DNA from: Candidatus Thorarchaeota archaeon
Lineage (GTDB): Archaea; Asgardarchaeota; Thorarchaeia; Thorarchaeales; Thorarchaeaceae
Length of the DNA: 64,000 nt
Assembly (NCBI GenBank): GCA_019057475.1
Contig: DXJO01000006.1
Coordinates: forward strand, 32,001-96,000
Reading direction: 5' to 3'
The position numbers and the translations under genes are program-made. This document shows, one piece after another, positions 19,112 to 39,096 of the stretch (positions are counted from its first letter, which is position 1; each line of letters opens with the position of its first letter). A model generated the notes under the pieces. The model did no database searches and was not told the origin of the DNA. It worked only from the letters and a program-made list of their open reading frames with translations.

Positions 19112-20448
19112 CTGTTGCAGGGGAAAAGATAGTTGTCGAGGATAGGAAATCTACTGATACTGCCTTAGTAATCGGTGGCGGTGTTTCTGGCATGCAAGCT
19201 GCTCTCGACATTGCCGACCAAGGCTACTCTGTGGTGCTAGTCGAAAGAACACCATCCATTGGTGGGGTCATGGCCATGCTGGATAAGACATTCCCCACAC
19301 TTGATTGTTCGGCATGCATCCTTACGCCCAAGCTGTCTGAGGTTGCTCGGCACCCGAACATCGAGCTCATGACCTACTCTGAAGTCAAGAGCATCACCGG
19401 AACTGCAGGCAACTTTAGAGTCAGCGTTCTTCGGAAAGCACGTAAGGTCCTCGAAGACAAGTGTTCCGGATGTGGGGATTGTGTTCCACACTGCCCAATA
19501 GAAGTGCGAAATGAGTTTGACCAAGGCCTGGGCTACCGCAAGGCGGTGTACATTGGGTTCCCACAGAACACACCCCTCGTCTATACTATTGATTCTGAGA
19601 ACTGTATCAAATGTGGTATGTGTGTCAAGTCATGTGAACGAGAGGCCATCGACCTTGACTTGGAGGATGAGGAGATTGAGATATCCGTTGGTGCCATCGT
19701 GGTGGCAACCGGATATGAGCTCTACAACGTAGCCAATTACAGGCGCTTTGGCTATGGTCGTTTCAAGAATGTGATAAACGCACTCGAGTTCGAGCGCCTC
19801 ATCAATGCCGCTGGACCAACGGCTGGGAATCTCATGAGGCTTAGCGATGGGAAGATTCCAAAGAGCATTGGGTTCATCCAATGTGTTGGGGCACGCGACG
19901 CGACGAAGGACGTACCATATTGCTCGCGAGTATGTTGCATGTACGGTATCAAGAATGCGGTCATGGCCAAAGAGCTCCAACACGAGAACGTGAAGAAGGT
20001 GACCATATACTCGATCGACATTCGAGCGTTCGGCAAGGGTTTTGAGGAATTCTACAACATGGCCAAGGATCGATTTGGCATTAAGTTCATCCGAGGAAGA
20101 GTAGGAGAGGTGTCGGAGAACTCACGGAACAAGAACATCATTGTGCGTGCCGAAGACACGACAACAGGGAAGTTCTTGGAGCAGGAACACGAACTAGTAG
20201 TGCTCTGCCCCGGAATCCTGCCTCCCAAAGGTCTGCGGGATACTGCGAATCAGCTGGGGCTCCAGCTTGACTCAGATGGCTTCATTCACGTGGAACAACC
20301 AGCGAGCAACCCTGTGGACACGGCGGTTTCTGGAGTCTACATATGCGGATGTGTTGAGGGTCCGAAAGACATTCCAGACTCCGTAGCAGCAGGAAGCGCG
20401 GCCGCGATGCGCGCAAGCATCACGTTATGGAGGGAAGGTGAGCACTAA
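19108..20448 (+). CDS. hdrA: HdrA-family subunit lacking N-terminal domain and C-terminal ferredoxin
   Basis: GGGVSG, FPTLDCSACIL, inserted 2x[4Fe-4S], QCVGAR..YCSRVCC, GPKDIPDSV. Confidence 0.85.
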   Translation: MTVAGEKIVVEDRKSTDTALVIGGGVSGMQAALDIADQGYSVVLVERTPSIGGVMAMLDKTFPTLDCSACILTPKLSEVARHPNIELMTYSEVKSITGTAGNFRVSVLRKARKVLEDKCSGCGDCVPHCPIEVRNEFDQGLGYRKAVYIGFPQNTPLVYTIDSENCIKCGMCVKSCEREAIDLDLEDEEIEISVGAIVVATGYELYNVANYRRFGYGRFKNVINALEFERLINAAGPTAGNLMRLSDGKIPKSIGFIQCVGARDATKDVPYCSRVCCMYGIKNAVMAKELQHENVKKVTIYSIDIRAFGKGFEEFYNMAKDRFGIKFIRGRVGEVSENSRNKNIIVRAEDTTTGKFLEQEHELVVLCPGILPPKGLRDTANQLGLQLDSDGFIHVEQPASNPVDTAVSGVYICGCVEGPKDIPDSVAAGSAAAMRASITLWREGEH

Positions 20449-22196
20449 TGGCTACAGAGGAAGTTCCAAGGATTGGCGTATTCGTATGTCATTGTGGACA
20501 TAACATTGCTGGGACTGTAGATGTTGAGCGCGTGGCGGAGATTGCCGCCCACTACCCGAATGTTGAGTTCGCTACACATTTCATGTTCATGTGCAGTGAC
20601 TCCGGACAACAGCTGATTCGCGACAAGATCGAGGAGTTTAGTCTAAATAGGGTCGTAGTTGCCAGTTGCTCTCCCCGGATGCACGAGCCAACGTTTCGAA
20701 GGGTGGTCGAAGAGGCTGATGTCAACAGATACTGCTTCGAACAGGTGAACCTGAGAGAGCACGTGTCTTGGTGCCATATGAGGGAGCCTGAGGCAGCTAC
20801 CGAGAAAGCGATAGATCTTATTCGGATGTCTGTTGCTAGGGCCGCCCTTCTCGTGCCACTCGAGGTTAAGACTGTGAGTGTAGAACCACATACTCTGGTC
20901 GTTGGCGGCGGGGTTGCTGGATTGAGGGCGGCAATCGACATTGACAGCCGCGGCTTCAAGGTCACTCTCGTGGAACGAGAGCCTGAACTCGGTGGGAATC
21001 TAGCAAAGCTCTCTACTCTCTATCAGGGCAATGAGAAAGCCAGTGATGTCATCGAACGTATGGTACTGGCGGCCCGAATTAGCGAGAACCTGACCATAAT
21101 GACTGATTCGGAAGTGGTTGACGTCGAAGGCTATATTGGCAATTTTGATGTGACTGTCAAGAACAATGCCACCGACAAGACAGAGAAGCTCCGGGTTGGA
21201 GCTATAATAGTTGCTACAGGCTTTCAGTCATGGGTGCCTGAAGGAATCCCTCCGTACGGAATGAGTCTGGATGTCATCACGTTGGCCCAGCTAGAGGAGA
21301 TGAAGCGGGATGACAAGTTATTATGTCCAAGTACCGGCAAGCCTCCCAAGAAGGTCATGTTTATCGGATGTGTTGGTTCTCGTCAACCGGGAGTGCAAGG
21401 GCATGAACACTGTTCCAGGTACTGTTGTACTGCCATGGTGAAGGCAGCTGCTGACATAACTGAGATTACTGACGAAGTTCTGATACTCTATGATGATATC
21501 CGTACATTCGGGAAGGGCCACGAGGAGGTCCACCGTTCTGCCCACGAGAAGTTTGTAATGTTCTCCAAGTTTGATCGCACCAAGCCTGCCAAGACAACAG
21601 TAGCTGACGGTGCTTTGAGTGTGAAATGGAGAGATATCTTGGCTGGCGATAATCTTGAGTTCCATCCGGACCTCTTGGTATTGGTTACAGCTATGATTCC
21701 CCCGGAAGGTGTAGAGAAAGTGTCCCAGCTGTTCAGCCTCACACGCTCGGCAGATGGCTTCTTCAATGAGGAACACATCAAGCTGGCTCCTTTAACTACT
21801 CACACCGCAGGTGTGATGATTGCAGGAGCTGCCCAATCTGCAAAGGATTCTACTGACAGCACTACGCAAGCGAGCGGAGCTGCCGCGAAAGCGGCTTCAT
21901 TGATGGCCCGGGGAGAAGTGGAGATTGAATCCACCGTTGCTCATGTGCTAGAAGAGCTGTGTTCCAGCTGTCACACATGCGCCACTGCTTGTCCATACGG
22001 TGCTATCTCCTTTGACACCTCAAAGAAACCGGAGATAGCCGTGGTGACAGAGGCAGAATGTCACGGATGTGGGACCTGCGCAGCAGGGTGTCCAAGCAGT
22101 GCCATTATTATGCGGCATTCGACTGATGAACAAATCACTGCAATGGTTGAAGCGTTTCTCATGCCTCCACCAGTGATGGGGGGTGGTGATTCATGA
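20448..22196 (+). CDS. hdrA: HdrA-family subunit lacking inserted ferredoxin and DCxxC motif
   Basis: IGVFVCHCG, ASCSPRMHE, GGGVAG, GCVGSR..HCSRYCC, C-terminal CSSCHTC/CHGCGTC. Confidence 0.85.
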   Translation: MATEEVPRIGVFVCHCGHNIAGTVDVERVAEIAAHYPNVEFATHFMFMCSDSGQQLIRDKIEEFSLNRVVVASCSPRMHEPTFRRVVEEADVNRYCFEQVNLREHVSWCHMREPEAATEKAIDLIRMSVARAALLVPLEVKTVSVEPHTLVVGGGVAGLRAAIDIDSRGFKVTLVEREPELGGNLAKLSTLYQGNEKASDVIERMVLAARISENLTIMTDSEVVDVEGYIGNFDVTVKNNATDKTEKLRVGAIIVATGFQSWVPEGIPPYGMSLDVITLAQLEEMKRDDKLLCPSTGKPPKKVMFIGCVGSRQPGVQGHEHCSRYCCTAMVKAAADITEITDEVLILYDDIRTFGKGHEEVHRSAHEKFVMFSKFDRTKPAKTTVADGALSVKWRDILAGDNLEFHPDLLVLVTAMIPPEGVEKVSQLFSLTRSADGFFNEEHIKLAPLTTHTAGVMIAGAAQSAKDSTDSTTQASGAAAKAASLMARGEVEIESTVAHVLEELCSSCHTCATACPYGAISFDTSKKPEIAVVTEAECHGCGTCAAGCPSSAIIMRHSTDEQITAMVEAFLMPPPVMGGGDS

Positions 22197-22627
22197 CTGC
22201 CACTGTCACAATTTCTAAAGAGTGGATACCTAGGATTGCAGCCTTTTGCTGCAACTGGTGTTCCTACGCAGGTGCTGACCTAGCTGGCACAAGCAGAATC
22301 CAGTACCCCTCTGCTGTGCGAATAATCAGGGTAAATTGCACTGGTAGGGTCGACCCCGAATTCGTACTAAACGCCCTTGACAAGGGTGCGGATGGAGTAC
22401 TCGTGTCAGGCTGTCATCCAGGGGACTGCCATTACACAAGCGGCAATCTCAAGATGCGGGCACGATGGACGCTACTTCAGATGGCCGTTGAGCAAGCCGG
22501 AATCAACCCCGATAGGATTCGTCTACAGTGGGCCAGCGCTTCAGAGGGACAGAAGTTCGCTGATGGGGTTAGAGAACTCACGGAGAAGGTCAAGAATTTG
22601 GGTCCGTTTAGGAGGGGTTGGCAATGA
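22193..22627 (+). CDS. mvhD: MvhD [2Fe-2S] subunit
   Basis: FCCNWCSYAGADLAG, GCHPGDCHY, WASASEG. Confidence 0.93.
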   Translation: MTATVTISKEWIPRIAAFCCNWCSYAGADLAGTSRIQYPSAVRIIRVNCTGRVDPEFVLNALDKGADGVLVSGCHPGDCHYTSGNLKMRARWTLLQMAVEQAGINPDRIRLQWASASEGQKFADGVRELTEKVKNLGPFRRGWQ

Positions 22628-22971
22628 AAGAGAAATCTACACAGGATAGGATTGAAGCAGCCATTGACGCCTTCGGAAGCGAGCGATTAAGATGGCTTAT
22701 AGGCAAAGGAGACGTTCTAACCCAACGAAACGAGCTGACCGAAGAGAAACTCAAGGAGCTCGTCGACAAAACAGTCCGCGAAGAGATTGACCGGAGTACC
22801 ATTGCCAGGCGGCTTAGAGAGTCGCCTTCAACGATATCAGAGATATCGAAGGCAACGAAGCTGGAAACGGACTACATATTGGAAAATCTCCTCGCCATGA
22901 TGAAGTGGAACCGCGTTGAGATAGTCGATGAGAAGCAGAGAGAATATGTCTATGCTCTGAAGGAGATCTGA
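22624..22971 (+). CDS. Winged-HTH-like small protein coupled to mvhD
   Basis: LRESPSTISEISKATKLETDYILENLLAM HTH-like segment; ATGA overlap with mvhD. Confidence 0.6.
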   Translation: MKEKSTQDRIEAAIDAFGSERLRWLIGKGDVLTQRNELTEEKLKELVDKTVREEIDRSTIARRLRESPSTISEISKATKLETDYILENLLAMMKWNRVEIVDEKQREYVYALKEI

Positions 22972-22973
22972 AC

Positions 22974-23897
22974 GTGACTGAACCAGTTCCTATCGCAATG
23001 GCCCAAGGTAGCTCCTGTTGGGGTTGTTACCAGAGCCTCATTGACATTCACCTTAATCTGGCAACTGTCCTCCCCCTGTTGGACATCAAGTACTGGACGT
23101 GTGTGGCCGACTTCAAGCTCAAGGATTTGGAGGGCTATCCTGACAAATCGATCACGGTCGGCCTGTACGAGGGAATGGCCCGAACAGAGGAGGACATTCA
23201 TCTGCTAAAGCTCATAAGAGCGAAGTGCAAGATACTGATTGCATTTGGCTCATGTTCATGCTTTGGCGGCATTCCTGGAATGGCTAACTTCTCAACGATA
23301 GAGGAGTGCAACGAGGTCAAGTTCCGAAACAACAAGACCGTTAAGGATGGTGAGCTGCCAACAGAGAACCTCCCAGCGATTGCTCCCGTTGTGATACCCA
23401 ACCGAGACATAGTTGACTTTGAAATCTTTTTGCCGGGGTGCCCGCCAACCTCTAGCTTGATTCTCACTGCATTGACTGCTCTGCTTGAAGGCAAACCGAT
23501 TGAGCTACCACCACACACGGTGTGTCACTATTGCGATCGCGAGAAGAAAGAAACCCCGATAGAGAAGATACTGAGACCCTACGAAGGCATAGCAGACCCC
23601 GACCGGTGCCTTCTCGAACAGGGGTATATCTGCCTTGGCTCTGCAACTTGGGGTCTCTGTGAAGGACAGTGTGTCAGCCATGGCGTGACTTGCCGGGGCT
23701 GTTTTGGACCGCCTCCGCCAATCATGGGCGACCAAGGGGCGGCGGCAATATCCATGCTTGGCTCATATGCACCTCTTGAATCGGAAGTCCTTGCTGACAC
23801 GGTCCATGACCCACTTGGTTGCTTCTGGAGGTTCACCTACCCAACAAGCCACCTGGGTGCCATTCGAATAAAGCGAGAGGAGGCAAAGACGAAATGA
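22974..23897 (+). CDS. vhuG: F420-non-reducing [NiFe] hydrogenase small subunit (MvhG/VhuG)
   Basis: SCWGC, FGSCSCFGGIPG, LPGCPP, CHYCDR, CLLEQGYICLG, CRGCFGP. Confidence 0.9.
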   Translation: MTEPVPIAMAQGSSCWGCYQSLIDIHLNLATVLPLLDIKYWTCVADFKLKDLEGYPDKSITVGLYEGMARTEEDIHLLKLIRAKCKILIAFGSCSCFGGIPGMANFSTIEECNEVKFRNNKTVKDGELPTENLPAIAPVVIPNRDIVDFEIFLPGCPPTSSLILTALTALLEGKPIELPPHTVCHYCDREKKETPIEKILRPYEGIADPDRCLLEQGYICLGSATWGLCEGQCVSHGVTCRGCFGPPPPIMGDQGAAAISMLGSYAPLESEVLADTVHDPLGCFWRFTYPTSHLGAIRIKREEAKTK

Positions 23898-25210
23898 CCA
23901 ACGAGAAGATAATCCGCATTGACCCAGTGACACGCCTTGAAGGTCATGGATCGTTGACTATCAAGCTGGGTCCTGGCAACAAGGTCAAGGATGTCCAGTT
24001 CAACGTTAACAGTACACGATTCTTTGAGAAGTTTCTCGAAGGGCGACCAATGGAAGAGGCTCCACGAATCGCTCCGCGGATCTGCGGAATCTGCCCTATC
24101 CCGCATCATCTTGCATCACTGAAAGCCGTGGAGGCCGCCTGGGATGTGACACCTCCACCTGCAGCAATCAAGCTTAGGCGGCTATTGATTGAGGCGAAGC
24201 AGCTCTCATCTCACGCAATTCACTTCTACGCTCTTGCGGCTCCTGATTTTGTCTTTGGACCCTTCGCGAGCCCGGCTGTACGGAACGTTGCTGCTGTTCT
24301 CAAGTATCTCCCTGATGTTGCAGTCCAAGCGATCAAGCTCATGGAGTTCGGTCAGGAACTGTGCGCGACTATTGGGGCCAAGGCAATCCACCCAACAACG
24401 GGCATTCCTGGTGGGATGCTGTACGCTATGAAAGAAGAAGAGCGCGATGATTGGCTCAAGAAGGTCCCTGAGATGCTGGAGAACATCCATAAGACAGTGG
24501 ACCTTGCCAAGACCGTTGTCAACTCATACATCGAGGTGATAACGAAGCTCGCAGTCACTCCAACGTACTACGTTGGTCTGACCAATGATGGAGCTTTTGA
24601 CATCTATGATGGCAAGATTCGCGTGATGGATCCAGATGGCAAGATTGTGAAAGAATTCATGCCTCACGAGTACACAAAGTACTACGGCGAGCACGTTCCT
24701 AAGCACTCCTATGCGACTCACATCTACTACAAACCAGCCGGCTACCCCGAGGGTATTTGGCGAGCGAATACTCTTGCACGATGCAACGTTAACGATAGGA
24801 TGGCCACACCTCTTGCAGACGCGGCCCTGAAGGAGATGAGAGAACTCGTTGGGAGACCCTCGCATCACACGTTTGTATACCACTACGCTCGAATCGTAGA
24901 GATGGTTCAAGCTGCTGAGATGATCAAGACGCTCCTTGAGGATCCCGAGATTGTAAGCACGGACGTGAAGCTTTCTGACGTTGAACCCAAGGCTGGCGAC
25001 GGCGTTGGTGTTGTCGAGGCTCCGCGAGGCATTCTGCTCCACAACTACGAGTCTGATGACAAGGGCATGCTGGTCAAGGCGAATCTCATTGTCGCCACGA
25101 ACAACAATATTGCCGGCATCGAGAAATCATTGATGGTGGCCGCGAAACAAATCTTCGAAGACAAAGTGCTCGAGAAGATTACACTTCCTGAACCCATGGT
25201 GAAAACTTAG
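23894..25210 (+). CDS. vhuA: Group 3c hydrogenase large subunit lacking the C-terminal L2 motif (VhuA)
   Basis: DPVTRLEGH, RICGICP (L1), VEAPRG, LIVAT; ends at TAG without DPCxSCxxH; ATGA overlap with vhuG. Confidence 0.9.
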   Translation: MTNEKIIRIDPVTRLEGHGSLTIKLGPGNKVKDVQFNVNSTRFFEKFLEGRPMEEAPRIAPRICGICPIPHHLASLKAVEAAWDVTPPPAAIKLRRLLIEAKQLSSHAIHFYALAAPDFVFGPFASPAVRNVAAVLKYLPDVAVQAIKLMEFGQELCATIGAKAIHPTTGIPGGMLYAMKEEERDDWLKKVPEMLENIHKTVDLAKTVVNSYIEVITKLAVTPTYYVGLTNDGAFDIYDGKIRVMDPDGKIVKEFMPHEYTKYYGEHVPKHSYATHIYYKPAGYPEGIWRANTLARCNVNDRMATPLADAALKEMRELVGRPSHHTFVYHYARIVEMVQAAEMIKTLLEDPEIVSTDVKLSDVEPKAGDGVGVVEAPRGILLHNYESDDKGMLVKANLIVATNNNIAGIEKSLMVAAKQIFEDKVLEKITLPEPMVKT

Positions 25211-25228
25211 ACAAAAGAATTGATGATC

Positions 25229-25381
25229 ATGACAGAAGAAATACCTGAAGGCGTACTGAACATCATCGAGATGGTTGTTCGGTGCTACGACTGCTGACTA
25301 TCCTGCGGCGCTCATCTCGTCATTATCGACGAAGAGGGCCGCGAACTAGTCAGGAAGGAGCTTCAGACCGGCGGCGGATGA
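25229..25381 (+). CDS. vhuU: Selenocysteine-containing hydrogenase peptide VhuU (TGA=Sec at 25295-25297)
   Basis: MTEEIPEGVLNIIEMVVRCYDC-TGA-LSCGAHLVIIDEEGRELVRKELQTGGG*; supplies the L2 motif missing from vhuA; near-identical second copy. Confidence 0.9.
25305..25342 (+). promoter_or_regulatory. Coding-region stem-loop 7 nt 3' of the Sec UGA (SRE-like)
   Basis: GCGGC/GCCGC, CTC/GAG, TCGTC/GACGA stems with 6-nt loop; stems identical in copy 2. Confidence 0.6.
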
Positions 25382-25419
25382 AGACCCAGAAAAAAGATTG
25401 AAAACTGAGTCTGACCTGC
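25374..25419 (+). ncRNA. Eukaryote-like SECIS element of vhuU copy 1
   Basis: GCGG-ATGA-AGACCCAG-(A-rich loop)-CTGAGTCT-GA-C-CTGC; ATGA core includes the vhuU stop codon. Confidence 0.7.
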
Positions 25420-25727
25420 TCCAGCAGGGGCGGAGTCGGTCTGGCTCCTTCAAACACCAGTCTTGTATGCTCGAACTCCTACACTCCAAAGAAGACAATG
25501 AATGATTTCGGACATTGAATTGTTATTTCGAATCCAGATTCAAAATTCAGAAACATCTTCCTGATTGTCTGTAATCATGCATGAAATCATTGATTGCGTT
25601 TCGTTTCAAATGATGAATCTCGTTTCCGTGACCGAAACCTAACTCAATAGTATTATAATCTCGTTGAGAGGACTCCTCGCTGGCCTCTGGCATGATTGCT
25701 CGCAGAACGGAACGGTGAATTGAGCCA

Positions 25728-28472
25728 ATGACGATTGACCACACATCGAAGAAAAGTACATCCAAACTGGACGTTGTATCTAGCGAAGCCCTGGTTATTG
25801 GGGGTGGCGTAGCTGGCATGCAGGCGGCTCTGGATATGGCTAACCAGGGTTTCAAGGTTCATCTGCTAGAGAAGACTCCTTCTCTCGGCGGAAAAATGGC
25901 GATGATAGACAAGACCTTCCCAACATTGGATTGCTCGGCATGTATTCTCACGCCGCGTCTCAGCGAGGTATCGCGTCATCCAAACATCGAACTACATACG
26001 TATTCTGACGTAATTAGCGTTGCTGGAAGAGTTGGCGATTTCAAAGTAAAGATACGCAAGCGGGCGCGATATGTGGATGAGGACAAGTGCTCGGCATGTG
26101 CGGACTGTGTCCCGGCTTGTCCAGTGGAGGTTCCTAATGAATTCGATCAGAGTCTTGGTTTCCGTAAGGCAATCTATCAACCGTTCCCACAGGCGACACC
26201 GAGCACCTACACCATTACCAAGCTTGGCACACCAGCATGCAGAGAAGCGTGTCCCGCAGACGTGAATCCTCAAGGCTTCATCTCCCTCATGAAGGAAGGG
26301 AGGTTTCATGATGCTCTTAGAATATTCAGGAAGTCCAATCCGTTCCCAGGTGTACTTGGCCGAGTGTGCATAGCCTTCTGCGAGGGCGAGTGTGTTCGAG
26401 GAGAGCTAGATGAGAGTGTAAGCATCAGGAATCTCCACAGGTTCTTGGCTGACTACGAGAGAAAACATGGACCTGATAGGCCAATTGAAGCGAAGATTGA
26501 CAAGGATGAAAGAATCGCCGTGGTCGGCGCAGGTCCCGCGGGTCTGGCATGTGGGTATCATCTTGTCAAGATGGGCTACCCCGTAACCGTATTCGAGGCT
26601 CAACCTGAAGCAGGAGGACTCCTCCGCTATGGCATTCCGGAATACAGACTTCCTCGTGACATACTGGCCGAAGAGATCGACTGGATTGCCAAGCATGGCG
26701 TAAAAATAAAGACAAGCTCTCCAGTCGAGTCAATCAAGAGCCTGAAAAAGGAGGGCTTCAAGGCGATATTCTTGGCTACAGGAGCCTCAAATAGTAACAA
26801 ACTTGGGATTGCAGGAGAGGAGGCAAAGGGCATCTACCATGCCAGTGATTTCTTGGAACGAGCCAACTCAGGGAAACCATATCCGTTGGGCGAAAAGGTT
26901 GCTGTGATTGGCGGTGGGGACGCGGCAATTGACTCCGCGAGAGTTGCCATTAGACTCGGTGCGAAGGAAGTCACGATAGTTTATCGCAGGTCACATGTCG
27001 AGTTGCCTGCCATCCCCAGCGAAGTCGAAGATGCACGAGAGGAAGGCCTTAATCTGCTACTACTGACTAATCCTATCGAAATCCTCACATCAAAGGATGA
27101 GCTGAGGGGCATCAGATGTATAAAGATGAAACTGGGTGAACCAGATCACTCGGGTCGTCGACGGCCCCAAGTCATTCGGGGTTCGGAATTCACGCTGATT
27201 GTAGACAACATGATTATTGCTGTGGGACAGAGCGTGACACCAAAGGGCCTACACGAGGAATGTGATTGTTCGGAATGGGGAACAATCAAAGTGAATCCCC
27301 TAACTCTGGAAACTAACATGGAAGGAGTCTTTGCTGGCGGTGACGTTGTTCTCGGTCCAGCCACCGCAGTTAAAGCCGTGGCCCATGGCAAGGAGGCTGC
27401 AATCTCAATAGATCGATTTCTGAGAAAGGTCAATGTTGAAGCGGATAGAATTGAAGAACGACACCGAGTGAGAGTTGAAGAGGTTGACATGGAAAAACCT
27501 ACTGAGCCTCGCGTAGACATGCCCAAACACGGTGTAGCGGGAAGAATTCAATCTTACACTGAGGTTGAACTTGGGTTTGAACAAGAATCTGCTACACAGG
27601 AGGCTGAACGATGCCTAGGCTGTGCAATCTGTTGCGAATGTGAGCTGTGTGTTGAAGCTTGCACGCGTGAAGCAATCGATCACAAGATGCAGGATGAGAT
27701 AATAGAGCTTCCAGTAGGTGCGATAGTATTGGCCGCAGGATACAGGCTTTACGATGTTAGTGATTACCCCAGGCTCGGATACGGAAAGTTCCCTAATGTC
27801 ATCCACGCGATGGAGTACGAGCGACTGATCAACGCATCAGGCCCAACCCACGGACATCTGATAAAGCTCAGTGACGGGAAGCTACCCAAGAGCATCGGTT
27901 TCATCCAATGTGTCGGTGCCCGAGATGTCAACCGCGGCGTTCCTGAGTGTTCACGAGTGTGTTGCATGTATGGTATCAAAAACGCAGTCATGGCAAAGGA
28001 ACATGACCCTGAGATTGACGTGACCATCTACTACGCTGACATCCGTGCCTTTGGCAAGGGCTTCGAGGAATTCTACAACATGGCTAAGGATCGATTTGGT
28101 ATCAAGTTCATTCGAGGCAGAGTTGGAGAGGTCATGGAGGACCGCGAAACAGGCAATCTCACTGTGAGAGTTGAGAACACCGATGAACATGCCATTCAGG
28201 ACATTGAACATGATCTTGTAGTAATCAGCCCCGGTATTCAACCCCCCTGGGGTCTTGATGTCATCGCCAGTGAGCTCGGACTAGAACTAGATGAGACAGG
28301 CTATGTGCCAGTGAAGGACGAGCTACTTGCGCCTGTGGACACTACTATTCCTGGTGTCTTTGCGTGTGGATGCGTCGATAGTCCCAAGGACATTCCAGAC
28401 TCGGTGACTGCGGGTAGCGCTGCCGCCATGAGGGCGACAATAATACTATCGCAGGCTGAGAAAAAGGAGTAA
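25728..28472 (+). CDS. hdrA: HdrA-family subunit with GltD-like insertion, lacking N-terminal domain and C-terminal ferredoxin
   Basis: GGGVAG, FPTLDCSACIL, CREACPAD/GRVC/GAGPAG/GGGDAAID module, QCVGAR..CSRVCC; GGTGA RBS. Confidence 0.85.
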   Translation: MTIDHTSKKSTSKLDVVSSEALVIGGGVAGMQAALDMANQGFKVHLLEKTPSLGGKMAMIDKTFPTLDCSACILTPRLSEVSRHPNIELHTYSDVISVAGRVGDFKVKIRKRARYVDEDKCSACADCVPACPVEVPNEFDQSLGFRKAIYQPFPQATPSTYTITKLGTPACREACPADVNPQGFISLMKEGRFHDALRIFRKSNPFPGVLGRVCIAFCEGECVRGELDESVSIRNLHRFLADYERKHGPDRPIEAKIDKDERIAVVGAGPAGLACGYHLVKMGYPVTVFEAQPEAGGLLRYGIPEYRLPRDILAEEIDWIAKHGVKIKTSSPVESIKSLKKEGFKAIFLATGASNSNKLGIAGEEAKGIYHASDFLERANSGKPYPLGEKVAVIGGGDAAIDSARVAIRLGAKEVTIVYRRSHVELPAIPSEVEDAREEGLNLLLLTNPIEILTSKDELRGIRCIKMKLGEPDHSGRRRPQVIRGSEFTLIVDNMIIAVGQSVTPKGLHEECDCSEWGTIKVNPLTLETNMEGVFAGGDVVLGPATAVKAVAHGKEAAISIDRFLRKVNVEADRIEERHRVRVEEVDMEKPTEPRVDMPKHGVAGRIQSYTEVELGFEQESATQEAERCLGCAICCECELCVEACTREAIDHKMQDEIIELPVGAIVLAAGYRLYDVSDYPRLGYGKFPNVIHAMEYERLINASGPTHGHLIKLSDGKLPKSIGFIQCVGARDVNRGVPECSRVCCMYGIKNAVMAKEHDPEIDVTIYYADIRAFGKGFEEFYNMAKDRFGIKFIRGRVGEVMEDRETGNLTVRVENTDEHAIQDIEHDLVVISPGIQPPWGLDVIASELGLELDETGYVPVKDELLAPVDTTIPGVFACGCVDSPKDIPDSVTAGSAAAMRATIILSQAEKKE

Positions 28473-28508
28473 TTCTGCTGGTGCATTATGAAGGACAGGT
28501 GATATGAG

Positions 28509-29009
28509 ATGAACAATGAAACACACACACCCTCCTCAGATTTCGCAAAAGAGATTGCCTTAATCCCGGGAGGGGAAGTCATCAACAAGTGTATCCAGTG
28601 TGGCATATGTACTGCCAGTTGTGTTGTGGCCTGTGTAGACGACCAATACCGGCCTCGGCGGCTGATTCAGAAGATTCTGATAGGCAAGAGAGATGAGGTG
28701 CTGAAGAGCGATCAACCTTGGCTATGCATGACGTGCAGAATGTGTGAAGAGCGATGCCAGGAGGGCGTAAGTCCCGCAGAGATATTCCACGCTGTACGAA
28801 TCCTCGCAGTCAAAGAGGGTCACATTCCCAAGGTGTTTCAGATTACTGTCGAAAAGGTACTCTGCGATGGTTGGATGTTAGCAGATGCATATACCGATTT
28901 CAACGAAGATGAGCGAGAGGATCTCGGCCTAAATCCTGCCCTCGCTTGGAATGACACTTTTACGAAGAAGGTGAAGAAGAAGTACCTCGCTGGGGAGGAG
29001 AGCGCATGA
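28509..29009 (+). CDS. hdrC: Heterodisulfide reductase subunit C
   Basis: CIQCGICTASC, WLCMTCRMCEERC; close paralog of 12375..12866. Confidence 0.9.
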   Translation: MNNETHTPSSDFAKEIALIPGGEVINKCIQCGICTASCVVACVDDQYRPRRLIQKILIGKRDEVLKSDQPWLCMTCRMCEERCQEGVSPAEIFHAVRILAVKEGHIPKVFQITVEKVLCDGWMLADAYTDFNEDEREDLGLNPALAWNDTFTKKVKKKYLAGEESA

Positions 29010-29884
29010 AAGAGATAATGCTGTACAGAGGGTGCACTACTCCTGTGAGGCTCCCGGCATACGAGGCAGCCACAATAGCTGTGCTGGGGAAGCTCGGAGT
29101 GAAGGTTGTTGAGATGGATGATGCAAACTGCTGCGGAGCCCAATATGTCGAGTCCGTAAGCAGAATGGCATTTGCAGCAATGAGCGGAAGAATCCTCGCA
29201 CTGGCTGAGAAAGAGAGCCAAGACATCTTGGCGTTGTGTGGCGCTTGTTCAGGTTCCCTGAAGATAAACAAGCATTTTCTGGACAACGACGAGAAGGCCC
29301 GTAAGGAGGTTAACGAACTCCTGTCAGAAGAGGGGTTGAAATATACCGGCAAGACTAGAGTTCGACACCTGCTCCAAGTCTTGAACGAGGATATCGGTTT
29401 CGAAGCAATTGAGAAAGCCATAAAGAAACCCTACAAAGGCTTGAAATTGGCCGCACATTATGGTTGTCACGTAACTCGGCCCTATGAGATTGTTCAAGTC
29501 GATGACCCTGAAAATCCCACAATCATTGACCGTCTTATTGAGATTGCGGGGGCAGAGGCTGTGGACTATGTGGGCAAGACCAGGTGCTGCGGTGGGCCTC
29601 TCCTGGCAATGGATGAGAGTCTTGCGACTCACATTGGCCAAGACAAGATAAGAGATGCCATCGCCGCCGGCGCACAAGGCATGGTCACCGCATGCGTGTT
29701 CTGTGATATCCAGTTGACACAAGTCCAGTTCGGTGAAGATACAGATTCGAGCAAGATGATTCCCGTCATTCCTATTGTGCAGTTTCTCGGTCCAGCCCTC
29801 GGCATCAAGGAGGATGTGCTGGGCATTGAGTTGAACAAGACCAGTCCCGATATCATCTTGTCAGCATTACAGGAGGCGAAATAA
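29006..29884 (+). CDS. hdrB: Heterodisulfide reductase subunit B
   Basis: Two CCG domains; close paralog of 12866..13753. Confidence 0.9.
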   Translation: MKEIMLYRGCTTPVRLPAYEAATIAVLGKLGVKVVEMDDANCCGAQYVESVSRMAFAAMSGRILALAEKESQDILALCGACSGSLKINKHFLDNDEKARKEVNELLSEEGLKYTGKTRVRHLLQVLNEDIGFEAIEKAIKKPYKGLKLAAHYGCHVTRPYEIVQVDDPENPTIIDRLIEIAGAEAVDYVGKTRCCGGPLLAMDESLATHIGQDKIRDAIAAGAQGMVTACVFCDIQLTQVQFGEDTDSSKMIPVIPIVQFLGPALGIKEDVLGIELNKTSPDIILSALQEAK

Positions 29885-31629
29885 TGACTGAAGCAGAAAC
29901 ACCAAGGATTGGCGTTTTCATCTGTCACTGTGGTCACAATATCGCGGGAGTCGTGGATGTGGTAAGAGTCGCTAAGATGGCTGAGTCTCTGCCGCATGTC
30001 GTCTTCTCGACGGATGACATGTTCATGTGTGCTGATGCTGGTCAACAACTAATCAAGGACATGGTGGAGGAGCATAGTCTGAATCGCGTCGTAGTCGCTA
30101 GCTGCTCACCCAGAATGCACGAACCTACATTTCGTAGAGTCGTCGAAGAGGCTGGCCTCAATCGTTATCTCTTCGAGCAGACCAATCTTCGAGAGCATGT
30201 ATCTTGGTGTCACATGAGAGAGCCCGAAGCGGCCACTGAGAAGGCAATGGATCTGGTACGGATGTCTGTTGCGCGAGCGGCCAAGCTTGAGAATCTGCCA
30301 GTGAAGAGCGTTAAAGTCACCCCTCGCACTTTAGTCGTTGGCGGAGGAATCACTGGCCTTCGAGCTGCACTCGATATTGCTAACCGTGGTTTTGATGTCG
30401 TTCTGGTGGACAAGGAACCAAAACTCGGCGGACATGTTGCGAAGTGGACTCACATGTTTACAGGCGACAGGTCAGGATCTGAGGTTGTTGGCCCCTTGGT
30501 CAAAGAAGTGAAAGCGCACAGTCGTATTGAAATTCTGACGAATAGCAGTGTGATCGAGTTTGATGGCTACATTGGCAACTTCGAGGCCACCATAGAGAAC
30601 AGGAAGGACAAGGCTCGCAGTAAATTTGACATTGGCACGGTGATTGTGGCAATTGGTTTTGACGCCTTCAAGCCCCACGGATACTACGGCTACGGAGAGA
30701 GTCCAGATATAGTCACTCTGGCTGAGCTACAAGAGATGCCTCCGAGAGATCGTCTGCTTAAGCCTAGCGACGGAAAGCCTGCAAGCAAGATTGCATTTAT
30801 TGGATGTGTAGGATCGCGTGAGCCTGGCAAGAGGGGTCATGAACATTGTTCCAGGCATTGTTGTCCTGCCGTGGCTAAAGCTGCTTCTGATCTTAAAGAC
30901 AGGCTCGACGAAGTGCTAATCCTTTACAAAAGCATCCGAACGTATGGCAGAGGCCATGAAGAACTGCATCGATTGGCCCGGTCAAAACACGTCATCTACT
31001 CTCGGTTCCCGGACGGAGAAGACCCGGTTATCGAAGTAGTGGACGGAAAAGTCAAGATGAGATGGACTGATATTTACGCAGATGAGGAACTGCAATTTGA
31101 GCCCGACATCCTTGTCTTGGCGTCCGCGATGGTTGCCCGATCGGACATTGACGAAACCACGAAGCTCTTTGGTCTAACTAGGAGTAGAGACGGATTCTTT
31201 AATCCGGAGCATATCAAGCTCGCTCCGCTTACCACACACACTGCAGGCGTTATGATTGCAGGCGCTGCGCAGGCGCCAAAGAATGCGTCTGAGTCAGTTG
31301 TCGATGCCAGTGGCGCAGCAGCAAAGGCCGTCGGAATCATGGCGCGAGGCGAGGTTGAGATTGAATCAACTGTATCTCGTGTCATTTCGGAATTGTGTTC
31401 TTCATGTCACACTTGCGTTACAGCGTGTCCATACGGCGCAATTGAAATGGACGAGTCGAAGGACCCGCCCATCGCCTTCGTGACTGAAGCGAAATGTCAC
31501 GGTTGCGGCACATGTGCCGCAGCTTGTCCGAGCAGTGCTATCATAATGTTGCACTCGACTGACGACCAAATCATGACGATGGTGCAAGCTTACCTCTGCG
31601 CACCACCCGACACAATAGGAGGTACATAG
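29884..31629 (+). CDS. hdrA: HdrA-family subunit lacking inserted ferredoxin and DCxxC motif
   Basis: IGVFICHCG, GGGITG, GCVGSR..HCSRHCC, C-terminal ferredoxin; paralog of 20448..22196. Confidence 0.85.
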   Translation: MTEAETPRIGVFICHCGHNIAGVVDVVRVAKMAESLPHVVFSTDDMFMCADAGQQLIKDMVEEHSLNRVVVASCSPRMHEPTFRRVVEEAGLNRYLFEQTNLREHVSWCHMREPEAATEKAMDLVRMSVARAAKLENLPVKSVKVTPRTLVVGGGITGLRAALDIANRGFDVVLVDKEPKLGGHVAKWTHMFTGDRSGSEVVGPLVKEVKAHSRIEILTNSSVIEFDGYIGNFEATIENRKDKARSKFDIGTVIVAIGFDAFKPHGYYGYGESPDIVTLAELQEMPPRDRLLKPSDGKPASKIAFIGCVGSREPGKRGHEHCSRHCCPAVAKAASDLKDRLDEVLILYKSIRTYGRGHEELHRLARSKHVIYSRFPDGEDPVIEVVDGKVKMRWTDIYADEELQFEPDILVLASAMVARSDIDETTKLFGLTRSRDGFFNPEHIKLAPLTTHTAGVMIAGAAQAPKNASESVVDASGAAAKAVGIMARGEVEIESTVSRVISELCSSCHTCVTACPYGAIEMDESKDPPIAFVTEAKCHGCGTCAAACPSSAIIMLHSTDDQIMTMVQAYLCAPPDTIGGT

Positions 31630-31631
31630 CA

Positions 31632-32078
31632 ATGACGACGAAAACAGCAGCCAAGATTGACAACACTGAGAGTTGGGAACCGAGAATCGTAGCGTTCTGC
31701 TGCAACTGGTGTTCCTATGCTGGAGCTGACCTAGCTGGCACTAGCAGAATCCAGTATCCCCCGAATGCCAGGATTCTACGAGTCAATTGTACCGGCCGGA
31801 TAAGTCTTGAGTTTATCTTGGCCGCTCTTGAGATGGGTGCAGACGGAGTTCTTGTGTCTGGATGCCACCCAGGTGACTGCCATTATACGAGCGGCAACCT
31901 TAAGCTCAGGGCGCGCTGGACTATCATGAAGAAGGCAATTGAGCAGGCCGGTGTTGACCCTCGCAGAGTCCGGCTCCAGTGGGCGAGTGCCTCTGAGGCA
32001 CAGATATTCGCTGACGGTGTCAGAACCTTGGTAAAGCAAGTGAAAGAACTGGGTCCTATCATGGAGGAATGGAAATGA
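31632..32078 (+). CDS. mvhD: MvhD [2Fe-2S] subunit
   Basis: FCCNWCSYAGADLAG, GCHPGDCHY. Confidence 0.93.
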   Translation: MTTKTAAKIDNTESWEPRIVAFCCNWCSYAGADLAGTSRIQYPPNARILRVNCTGRISLEFILAALEMGADGVLVSGCHPGDCHYTSGNLKLRARWTIMKKAIEQAGVDPRRVRLQWASASEAQIFADGVRTLVKQVKELGPIMEEWK

Positions 32079-32314
32079 GTGCAATCATCGCGCACTTCAA
32101 ACAGAAACGCGGGGATGTCCGCGCACAGCGCAAGGCGATAATGGAAGTGTTGTCCGAGGGTCCATCCAAGGTTTCAGTGATAGCTGAAAAAACTGAACTA
32201 TCCAAGGATAAGATCGTCTGGAACCTACTTGGCCTTCTCAGGTGGGGCACCGTAGAGATCATTGGGGAAGAAGAACATGAACTCATGTTCGCTGCAACGG
32301 AGGTCCAAGAATGA
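32075..32314 (+). CDS. Winged-HTH-like small protein
   Basis: LSEGPSKVSVIAEKTELSKDKIVWNLLGLLRWG; syntenic paralog of 22624..22971; overlaps both neighbours. Confidence 0.6.
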   Translation: MSAIIAHFKQKRGDVRAQRKAIMEVLSEGPSKVSVIAEKTELSKDKIVWNLLGLLRWGTVEIIGEEEHELMFAATEVQE

Positions 32315-33234
32315 CAGAACCCACATCAATCGCAATGGCCCAAGGCAGCTCCTGTTGGGGCTGTTTCCAGAGCCTCATCGACATTCACCTCAATCTTGCA
32401 ACTGTTTTGCCGCTGATTGACATCAAGTACTGGCAGTGTGTTGCTGACTTCAAGCTCAAGGACCTTGAGGGCTATCCAGACAAATCGATAACGGTTGGCC
32501 TGTACGAAGGGATGGCTCGAACAGAAGAGGACATTCATCTGCTAAAGCTTATGAGAGAGAAGTGCAAGATTCTGATTTCATTCGGCTCGTGTTCTTGCTT
32601 TGGCGGCATTCCGGGCCTAGCAAACTTTTCAACTCTAGAGGAGTGCCTAGAAGTTAAGTTCAGAAATAACAAGACAGTCAAGGATGGCGAGGTGCCGACA
32701 GAGAACCTTCCAACGATTGCTCCTGTTGTGGTACCTAACAGCACCATCGTTGACTTTGAAATTTTTCTTCCAGGATGCCCTCCGACATCCAAATTGATTC
32801 TAACGGCCTTGACTGCTCTGCTTGAAGGCAAACCGATTGAGCTACCGCCCCACACAGTGTGTCACTATTGCGACCGCGAGAAGAAAGAGACCCCGATAGA
32901 GAAGATACTGAGACCCTACGAGGGCATTGCAGACCCTGACAGGTGCCTGTTAGAACAGGGCTACATCTGCGTTGGTTCTGCAACGTGGGGCCTCTGCGAA
33001 GGGCAGTGTGTCAATCACGGCGCCACATGCCGTGGCTGTTTCGGTCCACCTCCGCCAATAACGAACGACCAAGGAGCGGCGGCAATATCCATGTTTGGCT
33101 CATACGCACCTCTTGAATCGGAAGTCCTTGCTGAAACGGTCCTTGACCCACTTGGCTGTTTCTGGAGGTTCACCTACCCAACAAGCCACCTTGGTGCTAT
33201 TCGAATCAAGCGAGAGGAGGCAAAGACGAAATGA
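32311..33234 (+). CDS. vhuG: Hydrogenase small subunit VhuG, copy 2
   Basis: Near-identical to 22974..23897, all Cys motifs present. Confidence 0.9.
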   Translation: MTEPTSIAMAQGSSCWGCFQSLIDIHLNLATVLPLIDIKYWQCVADFKLKDLEGYPDKSITVGLYEGMARTEEDIHLLKLMREKCKILISFGSCSCFGGIPGLANFSTLEECLEVKFRNNKTVKDGEVPTENLPTIAPVVVPNSTIVDFEIFLPGCPPTSKLILTALTALLEGKPIELPPHTVCHYCDREKKETPIEKILRPYEGIADPDRCLLEQGYICVGSATWGLCEGQCVNHGATCRGCFGPPPPITNDQGAAAISMFGSYAPLESEVLAETVLDPLGCFWRFTYPTSHLGAIRIKREEAKTK

Positions 33235-34547
33235 CCAACGAGCGAACAATCCGCATTGACCCAGTGACACGCCTTGAAGGCCATGGAACGTTGACTATCA
33301 AACTAGGTCCTGGCAACAAGGTCAAGGATATCCAGTTCAACGTTAACAGCACACGATTCTTTGAGAAATTCCTAGAAGGGCGACCAATGGAGGAAGCTCC
33401 ACGAATCGCTCCACGGATCTGCGGCATATGCCCAATCCCACACCATCTTGCTTCACTGAAGGCAGTCGAGGCCGCTTGGGATGTGACACCTCCACCAGCC
33501 GCAATCAAACTGAGGCGGCTATTGATTGAGGCGAAGCAGCTTTCATCTCATGCAATCCACTTCTACGCTCTTGCGGCTCCGGACTTTGTCTTTGGACCCT
33601 TCGCGAGCCCGGCGGTACGGAACGTTGCTGCTGTTCTCAAGTATCTCCCTGATGTTGCAATCCAAGCAATCAAGCTGATGGAGTTTGGTCAGGAGTTGTG
33701 CACGACCATTGGGGCCAAGGCAATTCATCCGACGACAGGCATTCCTGGCGGGATGCTATACGCTATGAAAGAGGAGGAACGCGATGACTGGCTGACGAAG
33801 GTACCGGAAATGCTGGAGAATATCCACAAGACGGTGGACCTTGCCAAGACCGTTGTCAACTCATACATCGAGGTGATAACAAAGCTAGCGGTAACTCCAA
33901 CTTACTATATTGGGTTGACCAACAATGGAACTCATGATATCTACGATGGCAAGATTCGCGTGATGGACCCTGAAGGTAAGATTGTAGAGAACTTCAAGCC
34001 TAGCGAGTACACAAAGTACTACGGTGAGCATGTTGCCAAGCACTCCTATGCAACTCACATCTACTACAAACCAGTCGGCTACCCCGAGGGCATTTGGAGA
34101 GCGAATACTCTCGCACGGTGCAATGTAGCCGATAGGATGGCCACACCTCTTGCAGATGCGGCTCTGAAAGAGATGAGAGAACTCGTTGGGAGACCCTCGC
34201 ATCACACGTTTGTATACCACTACGCTCGAATCGTAGAGATGGTGCAAGCCGCTGAGATGATCAAGACGCTTCTGGAGGACCCGGAGATTGTGAGCACAGA
34301 CGTGAAGCTTTCTGACGTTGAACCCAAGGCTGGCGACGGCGTTGGTGTTGTCGAGGCTCCGCGAGGCATCCTGCTCCACAACTACGAGTCTGATGACAAG
34401 GGCATGCTGGTCAAGGCGAACCTCATTGTGGCCACGAATAACAATATTGCCGGCATCGAGAAGTCATTAATGGTTGCCGCGAAACAAATCTTCGAGGATA
34501 AAGTCCTCGAGAAGATTACACTTCCTGAACCTATGGTGAAAACTTAG
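33231..34547 (+). CDS. vhuA: Hydrogenase large subunit VhuA, copy 2 (no L2 motif)
   Basis: Near-identical to 23894..25210; RICGICP; ends at TAG. Confidence 0.9.
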   Translation: MTNERTIRIDPVTRLEGHGTLTIKLGPGNKVKDIQFNVNSTRFFEKFLEGRPMEEAPRIAPRICGICPIPHHLASLKAVEAAWDVTPPPAAIKLRRLLIEAKQLSSHAIHFYALAAPDFVFGPFASPAVRNVAAVLKYLPDVAIQAIKLMEFGQELCTTIGAKAIHPTTGIPGGMLYAMKEEERDDWLTKVPEMLENIHKTVDLAKTVVNSYIEVITKLAVTPTYYIGLTNNGTHDIYDGKIRVMDPEGKIVENFKPSEYTKYYGEHVAKHSYATHIYYKPVGYPEGIWRANTLARCNVADRMATPLADAALKEMRELVGRPSHHTFVYHYARIVEMVQAAEMIKTLLEDPEIVSTDVKLSDVEPKAGDGVGVVEAPRGILLHNYESDDKGMLVKANLIVATNNNIAGIEKSLMVAAKQIFEDKVLEKITLPEPMVKT

Positions 34548-34565
34548 ACGAGAGAATTGATGATT

Positions 34566-34718
34566 ATGACAGACGAAATACCTGAAGGAGTACTGAACAT
34601 CATCGAAATGGTTGTTCGGTGCTACGACTGCTGACTATCCTGCGGCGCTCATCTCGTCATTGTCGACGAAGAGGGCCGCGAGATAGTTAGGAAGGAGCTC
34701 GTGACTGGCGGCGGATGA
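34566..34718 (+). CDS. vhuU: Selenocysteine-containing VhuU, copy 2 (TGA=Sec at 34632-34634)
   Basis: MTDEIPEGVLNIIEMVVRCYDC-TGA-LSCGAHLVIVDEEGREIVRKELVTGGG*; 4 aa differences from copy 1, frame conserved past the TGA. Confidence 0.9.
34642..34679 (+). promoter_or_regulatory. SRE-like stem-loop 3' of the Sec UGA, copy 2
   Basis: Same stems as 25305-25342; the only change is in the loop (ATTATC to ATTGTC). Confidence 0.6.
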
Positions 34719-34756
34719 AGGCTCGGTCGAAAACTAACGGACCGGGTTGGACAGCC
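34707..34756 (+). ncRNA. Eukaryote-like SECIS element of vhuU copy 2
   Basis: ATGA-A-GGCTCGGTC-GAAAACTAACG-GACCGGGTT-G-GA-C; 9-bp helix with G-U pairs, AAAA loop; ATGA includes the stop codon. Confidence 0.75.
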
Positions 34757-34762
34757 TCGCAA

Positions 34763-34800
34763 GGGCGCGCTAGTCGCGCTCCTTCTATCCCTTTATTTCT
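34763..34800 (+). terminator. GC hairpin plus pyrimidine tract ending hdr/vhu cluster 2
   Basis: GGCGCG-CTAGT-CGCGCT then CCTTCTATCCCTTTATTTCT. Confidence 0.45.
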
Positions 34801-34825
34801 ACAAGAAACGACGATTGTGGTGACC

Positions 34826-35281
34826 GTGATAGGCGAACTGCGAATAGAAAATGCTGAAACCTCAGACTTCCCTGCAATAGCAGCCTTGCTGCGGAACACT
34901 GGTCTTCCTCCTGATGACATCGAACATCATCTGGAAGGCTTTCTGGTAGTTCGGAGTCCAGAGGCTGCGATTGAACCTGATATTCTCTTAGGTAGTGTAG
35001 GTCTGGAAATCTATGGCAAGTTTGCGTTGCTTCGTTCTCTTGCCGTGCATCCGGATTTTCAAGGGAAAGGGCTAGGCAAGCGACTCGTCAGCGGAATTAC
35101 TCGGACTGCAAGGGAAAGAGGAATCACTCGACTCTACTTGCTCACTGATACTGCGGAAGATTTCTTCAAGAGGCTTGGATTCAGTCCAATATCGCGGGAT
35201 GAAGTTCCAGAAGAAGTCAAACAATCCATTGAGTTCACGATCTTATGTACAGAGTCTCCATCTATGATGAAAGAAATCTAA
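34826..35281 (+). CDS. GNAT N-acetyltransferase (ArsN2-like)
   Basis: LLRNTGLP, ALLRSLAVHPDFQGKGLG, LYLLTDTAEDFFKRLGF, IEFTILC; start uncertain, track ATG 34715 lies inside the SECIS. Confidence 0.75.
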   Translation: MIGELRIENAETSDFPAIAALLRNTGLPPDDIEHHLEGFLVVRSPEAAIEPDILLGSVGLEIYGKFALLRSLAVHPDFQGKGLGKRLVSGITRTARERGITRLYLLTDTAEDFFKRLGFSPISRDEVPEEVKQSIEFTILCTESPSMMKEI

Positions 35282-35361
35282 GCTCGAAAGACTTCGTATT
35301 TTCAAGAACCTAAGAAGAGGATATATGAGGCCAGGTCAGTCTTGAATCACGGGGAACGCAT

Positions 35362-35982: not shown

Positions 35983-36032
35983 AGAGGAAGGCAGGCCTTA
36001 CCTGCCATTCCTTAGATTTAAGATCTTGTTCG

Positions 36033-37142: not shown

Positions 37143-37336
37143 GAATCCGTTTGCGTCGGGTCTTTCTATTCAAAGCCGACCTTTTTTTGTATATAAAGCA
37201 GGGCCACAATTTAGGGTCACATCTTGTGACTAGTAGTTCTATCCATTAAAATAGGTAACAATTGTTAAAAATCTATATGTAGCGATAGTTCGGGCGTATG
37301 GATGATGCATGACTAACTGAAAATAGCACGCTCATT

Positions 37337-38987: not shown

Positions 38988-39059
38988 TAGTAATCCCGAA
39001 TGGCATTAACCATTTGAGATGACTAACATCAGTTTCGAAGGCGGGTACGACGCCCTTTA

Positions 39060-39096
39060 GGGGGCAATCGTTGCTCTCCTTCTATCCTTTTTTTTT
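39060..39096 (+). terminator. Hairpin plus T-tract after ssb
   Basis: GGGGCAA-TCG-TTGCTCT then CCTTCTATCC and a long T run. Confidence 0.6.

Follow-up and report, generated by a model that had tools for sequence, protein, structure and literature searches.

The closest described systems come from Asgard archaea. The lokiSECIS of VhuU was described as an AUGA, a 9-bp stem, an 11-nt A-rich loop and a GA/AA, and in VhuU.1 the AUGA at the same time supplies the UGA stop, for which it was argued that structural constraints preclude SECIS function at so near a stop, so that this UGA is not recoded (Mariotti et al. 2016, Mol Biol Evol 33:2441, PMC4989117). A later survey of more than 400 Asgard genomes (Huang, Xiao and Zhang 2024, ISME J, PMC11227280) reports that UGA stops often overlap the AUGA, repeats the argument of Mariotti et al. 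on a stop close to the element, gives G[U/G]AAA loops and the lower-stem pairs [U/C]GG_C[C/U][A/G] for Thorarchaeia frhA/vhuU, and states that SECISearch3 returned nothing significant. No SBP2 is reported from Asgard archaea in the literature, Mariotti et al. (PMC4989117) included. A structural point of comparison is the k-junction, which combines a canonical helix 5' of the loop, G.A pairs and a third helix in the non-bulged strand (Wang et al. 2014, NAR 42:5322, PMC4005666).

The DNA that we analysed, referred to here as the window, is a stretch of 64,000 nucleotides from a Candidatus Thorarchaeota contig, and it holds two paralogous clusters of the order hdrA-mvhD-small ORF-mvhG-mvhA-vhuU (20448-25381 and 29884-34718; Pfam assignments). 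The C-terminal metal-binding motif is absent from both large-subunit genes, as a stop precedes the motif and a separate 52-codon gene, vhuU, comes next. The vhuU product reads ...RCYDC-U-LSCGAH and then continues for 25 residues as a tail; its Sec codon is an in-frame TGA, which in both copies stands at the ligand position of DxUxxC. In the maturation of [NiFe]-hydrogenases the tail is removed after the His. Copy 1 matched itself and homologues across the class at 98%, and the genome encodes tRNA-Sec, SepSecS and a Sec-containing SelD with an in-frame TGA. An earlier reading made from the sequence only had stated that both vhuU genes end in GGA-TGA with the ATGA at the base of a hairpin, that this core lies about 80 nt from the Sec codon, and that the coding sequences are nearly identical whereas the 3' helices have diverged. 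This description is accurate to the base, both copies ending in GGC-GGC-GGA-TGA; the gap from the Sec codon to the AUGA is 80 nt; and the two coding sequences share 92.5% identity (12 differences in 159 positions) against about 46% in the 3' regions, both of which pair.

Some further features of the clusters deserve mention. In neither cluster do hdrA and mvhD (20448-22627 and 29884-32078) contain an in-frame TGA, so that they are Cys forms, whereas in Lokiarchaeia HdrA and VhuD are selenoproteins with one common SECIS. Between mvhD and mvhG lie small ORFs at 22618-22971 (117 aa) and 32069-32314 (81 aa), unequal in length between the paralogous clusters, for which no convincing Pfam family was found.

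The features assigned at the two vhuU loci are collected in the table, together with the coordinates of related modules in other genomes of the class that are discussed below. In copy 2 the AUGA is followed directly by an A and then by a 9-bp helix closed by an 11-nt loop (GAAAACTAACG), with a single G between the helix and the GAC. Judged by sequence, copy 2 is an exact fit to the published descriptions and copy 1 is a diverged member of the same kind. Folded one sequence at a time, the short hairpin regions are not significantly stable (z about -1.1), and the case for the element therefore rests on comparison with relatives. A single-sequence z of only about -1 is what a chance hairpin after a stop codon could give, and it is the one observation that suits such an origin; conservation and covariation over 71 Thorarchaeia and 35 Loki-type sequences speak against it, as do the E values obtained with a covariance model of the core (R1), and we regard the probability of a chance hairpin as negligible. 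At E <= 0.01 this model, whose training set included both vhuU sequences of this genome, picked out three places in the 3.34-Mb genome, and the two vhuU ends were the top two, with 59.2 bits (E about 1e-11) for copy 2 and 32.7 bits (E about 7e-5) for copy 1.

Table. Features of the two vhuU loci in the window, and orphan vhuU 3' modules in other genomes of the class.
Feature	Copy	Position	Strand	Remarks
vhuU	1	25223..25381	+	52 codons and stop; Sec TGA 25295-25297; stop TGA 25379-25381
H0	1	25295..25352	+	base contains the Sec UGA; MFE -30.1 kcal/mol, z -3.5 to -5.1
P1, 5' strand	1	25364..25372	+	CAGACCGGC, codons Gln-Thr-Gly; pairs with 25435-25443; centroid fold
AUGA core	1	25378..25381	+	UGA 25379-25381 is the vhuU stop codon
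P2	1	25382..25412	+	SECIS helix AGACCCAG (25382-25389) with CTGAGTCT (25405-25412), 8 bp with one C.A mismatch; 15-nt A-rich loop
GAC	1	25413..25415	+	3' half of the putative G.A/A.G core
P3	1	25416..25433	+	GC-rich hairpin CUGCUCC-AGCA-GGGGCGG (centroid); position homologous to P3 of alignments A2 and A4
P1, 3' strand	1	25435..25443	+	GUCGGUCUG; centroid fold
vhuU	2	34560..34718	+	Sec TGA 34632-34634; stop 34716-34718
H0	2	34632..34689	+	starts at the Sec UGA; MFE -33.6 kcal/mol, z -5.1 to -7.0
P1, 5' strand	2	34700..34710	+	CGUGACUGGCG; pairs with 34768-34778, 11 bp; MFE and centroid folds
AUGA core	2	34715..34718	+	stop codon 34716-34718
P2	2	34720..34748	+	9-bp SECIS helix, GGCTCGGTC (34720-34728) with GACCGGGTT (34740-34748); 11-nt loop GAAAACUAACG
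GAC	2	34750..34752	+	one G between helix and GAC
P3	2	34754..34766	+	GCCU-CGCAA-GGGC; 96.5% paired, closing pair covaries
P1, 3' strand	2	34768..34778	+	CGCUAGUCGCG; MFE and centroid folds
C/U-rich tract after the junction	2	34779..34800	+	from sequence; pyrimidine tract conserved in the class alignment
Orphan modules		L087 (G036:C24) 1111-1152, 1677-1718; L088 (G063:C46) 693-734, 3284-3325		
Orphan modules		L089, L091 6226-6267; L097-L102		

A six-frame search of 87 genomes of the class yielded 73 Sec-type vhuU genes, and an alignment of 71 sequences (A2) was built; these sequences are kin, and all counts drawn from them overstate the number of independent events. The last codon and the stop read NNA-TGA in all 73 genes of the class (GGA in 60, GAA in 9, GCA in 3 and GTA in 1). 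The last residue of the protein thus varies among G, E, A and V across the class, and in the pair of Gly codons ahead of it A is the third base in only 2 of 121 cases. Since the A before the stop stays constant while the amino acid drifts, this A is fixed at the RNA level. In A2 the ATGA and two loop As are invariant (71/71), the loops start with G-N-AAA, and the bases 3' of the stem are GAC in 70 sequences and AAC in one. The upper helix, P2, comprises 8-9 bp with 93.9% of its cells paired, compared with 34-48% when the same structure was slid by 1-3 columns as a control, and double-sided, compensatory changes occur at 7 of its 8 pairs. The proposal of an AUGA...GA element with an A-rich loop, resembling the eukaryotic SECIS, carrying the stop UGA inside its core and covarying among vhuU 3' ends, is thereby upheld by the class alignment.

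Of 39 Sec-type vhuU genes sampled beyond the class (Loki-type families and Atabeyarchaeia), 36 likewise end in NNA-TGA, and the bases 3' of the stem in Loki-type sequences are GAC in 22 and AAC in 13. The three exceptions are two genes with UUGA and one with a TAG stop. The latter (L130, G297:C12), the only Sec-type vhuU seen with TAG, has an intact AUGA hairpin that starts 1-2 bases later and so offers a natural separation of the stop from the core. Free use of TAA or TAG stops with loss of the hairpin had been named as what would speak against the proposal: one TAG was indeed encountered, but the hairpin is intact there. The TAG and UUGA variants indicate that the overlap of stop and core is not essential; it is a strong habit, near-universal yet dispensable. 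Two Cys-type vhuU genes (L074 and L124) end in GCT-TGA and GGT-TAA, and both ATGA and hairpin are absent from them; the element was found in 112 of 112 Sec-type vhuU genes examined and in neither of the two Cys-type genes. In metatranscriptome contigs from four runs of two studies, mvhA and vhuU of relatives were covered at 85-95% identity and the SECIS region was uncovered.

The window elements combine the features that characterize Asgard eSECIS-like elements and lokiSECIS, namely the AUGA, the GA/AA, a covarying stem of 7-15 bp, the loop As and a 3' location in a Sec gene. As in lokiSECIS, the AUGA stands directly 5' of a stem of about 9 bp with an 11-nt loop, copy 2 having exactly 9 bp and 11 nt. 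They differ in that Thorarchaeia loops begin with G-N-AAA and Loki loops with AAAAA, in that Thorarchaeia have GAC where Loki VhuU is reported with AA, and in a single unpaired position (A opposite G/U) between core and helix in Thorarchaeia. With the Asgard eSECIS-like type I, as described by Huang et al. (PMC11227280), they share the AUGA_GA core, the loops, the lower-stem pairs and the stop overlap, whereas the model drawn there consists of two stems, lower and upper, separated by an internal loop. The likeness to the eukaryotic SECIS (RF00031) lies in the AUGA...GA core, in the unpaired As atop helix II and in the presumed distant action on an upstream UGA, but helix II is shorter here (8-10 bp) and the element overlaps the coding region. 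A match to the eukaryotic SECIS model failed to appear: an Rfam scan of positions 20000-40000 at E <= 10 returned weak chance matches only and no SECIS family (RF00031, SECIS_1). By covariance model the element is not a member of the eukaryotic family; it resembles a eukaryotic SECIS and presumably acts like one. The GAA_A bulge type of SECIS of Methanococcales and Methanopyrus has vhuU, the 3' location and the Sec position in common with our case; in copy 2, however, the 3' region is filled by P2, P3, P1 and the pyrimidine tract, leaving no room for a second element. We conclude on these grounds that the element after each vhuU is an Asgard eukaryote-like SECIS with the stop inside its AUGA core, an identification that is correct and was already published.

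Beyond P2, two further helices emerged from the folds and alignments. The 5' strand of P1 is formed by codons -6 to -3 or thereabouts, which encode Val-Thr-Gly (in copy 1 Gln-Thr-Gly), and its partner lies in the 3'-UTR beyond P3, the hairpin that follows the GAC. The unconstrained fold of copy 2 gives P1 and P2. In copy 1 a CCUGC/GCAGG pairing is also possible at P3. Between the two copies P1 shows a compensatory change (CAG/CUG in copy 1, GUG/CGC in copy 2), and across A2 it is 87.5% paired with double changes at 7 of 10 pairs. Most Thorarchaeia genera have CGUGACYGGCG with CGCUGGUCGCG-type partners, one genus has GUGCUGGGC with GCCCGCAC, and Atabeyarchaeia have GUUCAAAU with AUUUGAAC. In Loki-type sequences the coding GUUGGYUU pairs with AARCCAAC located after P3, and one pair of this helix (21-87) is CG in 14 and UA in 12 sequences, the synonymous third base of a Gly codon covarying with its UTR partner. 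P3 follows the consensus RCCC-YGCAA-GGGY, its closing pair being AU in 40, GC in 17 and CG in 3 sequences. All three helices were present in the unconstrained folds of 40 of the 71 Thorarchaeia and 32 of the 35 Loki-type sequences. In Thorarchaeia P1 and P3 face competition from other pairings (GCGG.GG with CCCCGC, and a GYGCG-N5-CGCRC hairpin), and we accepted the multiloop-closing helix for this class on account of the same topology in Loki-type and Atabeyarchaeia sequences.

Taken together, the folds and covariation favour representing the element as a three-way junction, which it appears to be, over a lone hairpin. A two-helix model would instead have the GGC-GGC-GG of the Gly tail pair directly with the bases just after the GAC as a helix I below an internal loop. 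This proximal pairing is found in 95.8% of cells across the 71 sequences, was the choice of RNAalifold on A2, occurs in part in the MFE fold of copy 2 and agrees with the lower stem and internal loop drawn by Huang et al. (PMC11227280). Its 5' strand is nearly invariant, however, with double changes in two sequences only; it excludes P3, whose closing pair covaries; and the Loki-type sequences fold cleanly into P1, P2 and P3 with a covarying P1. Moreover, the lower-stem pairs of Huang et al. (YGG with CYR) suit P1 equally well, which means that P1 was probably partly seen already. The two-helix model is thus unlikely, and the suggestion that the Gly tail may exist mainly to encode the lower helix is not supported in this form, as that pairing, frequent as it is, hardly covaries and competes with P3. 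Neither the main text of Mariotti et al. 2016 nor the main text of Huang et al. 2024 mentions P3 or a junction, one reference title in the latter apart, and in the former P1 is likewise unmentioned. The three-way junction matches the topology of the k-junction in the arrangement of P1, P2 and P3, secondary structure alone being compared, and the linker before the core measures 5-6 nt in Thorarchaeia and 3 nt in Loki-type sequences if two extra pairs form there.

Two sequence features next to the junction were considered separately. The GYGCG-N5-CGCRC hairpin ('hairpin 3') was tried as a terminator hairpin and rejected, being only 76% paired and mostly explained by P1. The C/U-rich tract that follows the junction in copy 2 is a possible archaeal termination signal, judging from its composition. 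A mechanically called ORF of a GNAT acetyltransferase (34715-35281) starts at the ATG of the SECIS AUGA of copy 2 and spans P2, P3, P1 and the pyrimidine tract; as its Pfam match begins only at residue 73, the true start is probably near 34818-34830.

The sequence-only reading would have been weakened by a better SECIS elsewhere in the transcript, and a more stable structure does exist there. A 58-nt coding hairpin, H0, lies at the Sec UGA of both copies, and 0-2 of 200 shuffles were as stable (0 of 200 for copy 2). Across 56 Thorarchaeia sequences it is 90.6% paired, against 31-55% in slid controls. Its GC-rich middle stem begins 6 nt after the Sec codon, is paired in about 100% of cases and contains three covarying pairs; in one covariation a Gly-to-Ala change (GGC to GCC) is matched by a silent GGY-to-GGG change, and in another a silent UGC-to-UGU change is matched by Arg-to-His. 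A 12-nt insertion in some lineages lengthens the apex and the hairpin is kept; no conserved loop motif was found at the apex. H0 is absent from Cys-type homologues (z +0.3 to +1.8), and also from Loki-type (z about 0) and Atabeyarchaeia Sec vhuU genes.

That the real Sec signal might be H0, as a SECIS of bacterial type, with the 3' element secondary to it, would fit the observations that H0 exceeds every other local structure in stability (z down to -7), begins at the UGA, covaries and is without counterpart in Cys forms. We nevertheless consider this improbable: Loki-type and Atabeyarchaeia Sec vhuU genes keep the 3' element and are without H0, the apex tolerates an insertion and is without a conserved loop motif, and archaeal SelB is not known to carry the bacterial SECIS-binding extension. 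With the 3' element retained as the SECIS, the absence of H0 from Loki-type Sec genes marks H0 as an accessory specific to Thorarchaeia, which is not needed for Sec decoding generally. The nearest known counterpart is the eukaryotic Sec redefinition element (SRE), reportedly a coding stem-loop a few nt 3' of the Sec UGA. H0 is like it in that its always-paired stem starts 6 nt after the Sec codon inside the coding region, and unlike it in that the outer stem of H0 pairs the UGA itself and that, among the sampled sequences, H0 occurs only in Thorarchaeia vhuU; our literature search found no archaeal SRE. From the folds and this analogy, H0 most likely would help recoding as the SRE does, or would bring the UGA near the junction.

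The 3' module also occurs apart from complete vhuU genes. About 20 orphan vhuU 3' modules were seen in the class, each behind a gene or gene fragment that contains no Sec codon. The AUGA hairpin is common to all of them, most also retain 10-20 codons from the end of vhuU, and in the copies inspected P3 and P1 come next; the Sec-bearing front of the gene is missing, and the remnants begin near the apex of H0. They often stand in tandem downstream of an intact vhuU, flanking unrelated accessory genes. On two contigs with repeated modules (G052:C80 and G063:C46) the genes between them encode a DUF6036 nucleotidyltransferase, a CAAX protease, two SSB-like OB proteins, an alpha/beta hydrolase and unknowns, and no integrase was found between the modules. 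In two loci (L090, G031:C152, 56-97; L094, G057:C18, 674-716) a full SECIS-like module sits on the stop of a DUF6036/AbiEii-like nucleotidyltransferase gene of about 190 aa, which is without in-frame TGA and ends in DGG-TGA or NRE-TGA.

Two elements elsewhere in the same genome, outside the window, are of related interest. One, at G000:C8:59466-59507 (minus strand), is SECIS-like, is accompanied by a P3-like hairpin and stands 49 nt downstream of the stop codon of a cysteinyl-tRNA synthetase gene that contains no Sec codon; the 42-nt core of this element is identical in the genome of another genus (G059:C1:101589-101630). The selD gene (G000:C45:24506-24509, minus strand) has its Sec in HGUSCK and the stop ccA-TGA, followed by a hairpin ACCAUC/GAUGGU with the loop UGAAAC... 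and then GA, 990 nt after the Sec codon; according to Huang et al. (PMC11227280), Thorarchaeia selD mostly has GUGA. The MFE fold of the selD 3' region shows no three-way junction, and we accordingly make no claim of a junction for selD.

The orphans show that the module can persist without a UGA to recode, and they bear on a reading in which the module is mainly a 3'-end element (a terminator or a determinant of mRNA stability) or a site of recombination, and is linked to Sec only incidentally. The C/U-rich tract downstream of the junction suits this reading, as do the roughly 20 modules that follow non-Sec genes or 3' remnants of vhuU, among them copies arranged in tandem behind vhuU. Against it stand the SECIS signature of invariant AUGA, AA and GAC and the presence of the element in every Sec-type vhuU gene examined and in neither Cys-type gene; most orphans, but not all, carry vhuU C-terminal codons, as expected of gene-end duplication rather than of independent recruitment. 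An incidental link to Sec therefore has only a slight probability.

The alignments show a conserved, covarying architecture, a strict tie to Sec-type genes and a stop whose position is fixed within the core; the G.A/A.G pairs of that core, and with them its non-Watson-Crick geometry, are putative. It is very probable that an Asgard eukaryote-like SECIS ends each vhuU mRNA and directs Sec insertion at codon 25, with the stop in its AUGA and a P1-P2-P3 junction. In the arrangement that we propose, P1 would join the last codons to the 3'-UTR, P2 would be the SECIS helix with AUGA/GA at its base, and P3 would lie between the GA(C) and the 3' strand of P1. When the ribosome reaches the Sec UGA, the junction would be at least 66 nt downstream and could be folded, and with this UGA in the A site the ribosome would abut the middle stem of H0. 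By the time it arrives at the terminal UGA it would have unwound P1 and the core, by the same reasoning as in Mariotti et al. 2016; with these unwound no Sec signal would be left, and release would occur. Cleavage of the tail during maturation may leave this region free to encode RNA structure.

A wider reading, which we hold tentatively and at somewhat less than even probability, is that the vhuU SECIS is a k-junction whose closing helix lies in the last codons of the cleaved tail, that Thorarchaeia have H0 as an SRE-like hairpin, and that the 3' module was repeatedly duplicated at insertion points of accessory genes downstream of vhuU. If this were true, almost all of the 84 nt that encode the tail (about 58 nt of H0, 11 nt of P1, and the core) would be recoding RNA as well as coding sequence.

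The Asgard SECIS is a proposed link between archaeal and eukaryotic Sec decoding, and its exact architecture therefore bears on the origin of the eukaryotic SECIS. As a stop within the AUGA was already published, no new principle comes from the window; the three-way junction, the class-wide covariation of H0 and the orphan modules are modest additions. The class-wide data sharpen the picture in that the A before the stop is fixed whatever the last residue, that the overlap is near-universal but dispensable, and that the architecture of the element is apparently a three-way junction, partnered by a hairpin at the Sec codon. The dispensable overlap, together with the junction and H0, suggests concrete mutants for existing archaeal reporter systems (PMC9622424, PMC11881835).
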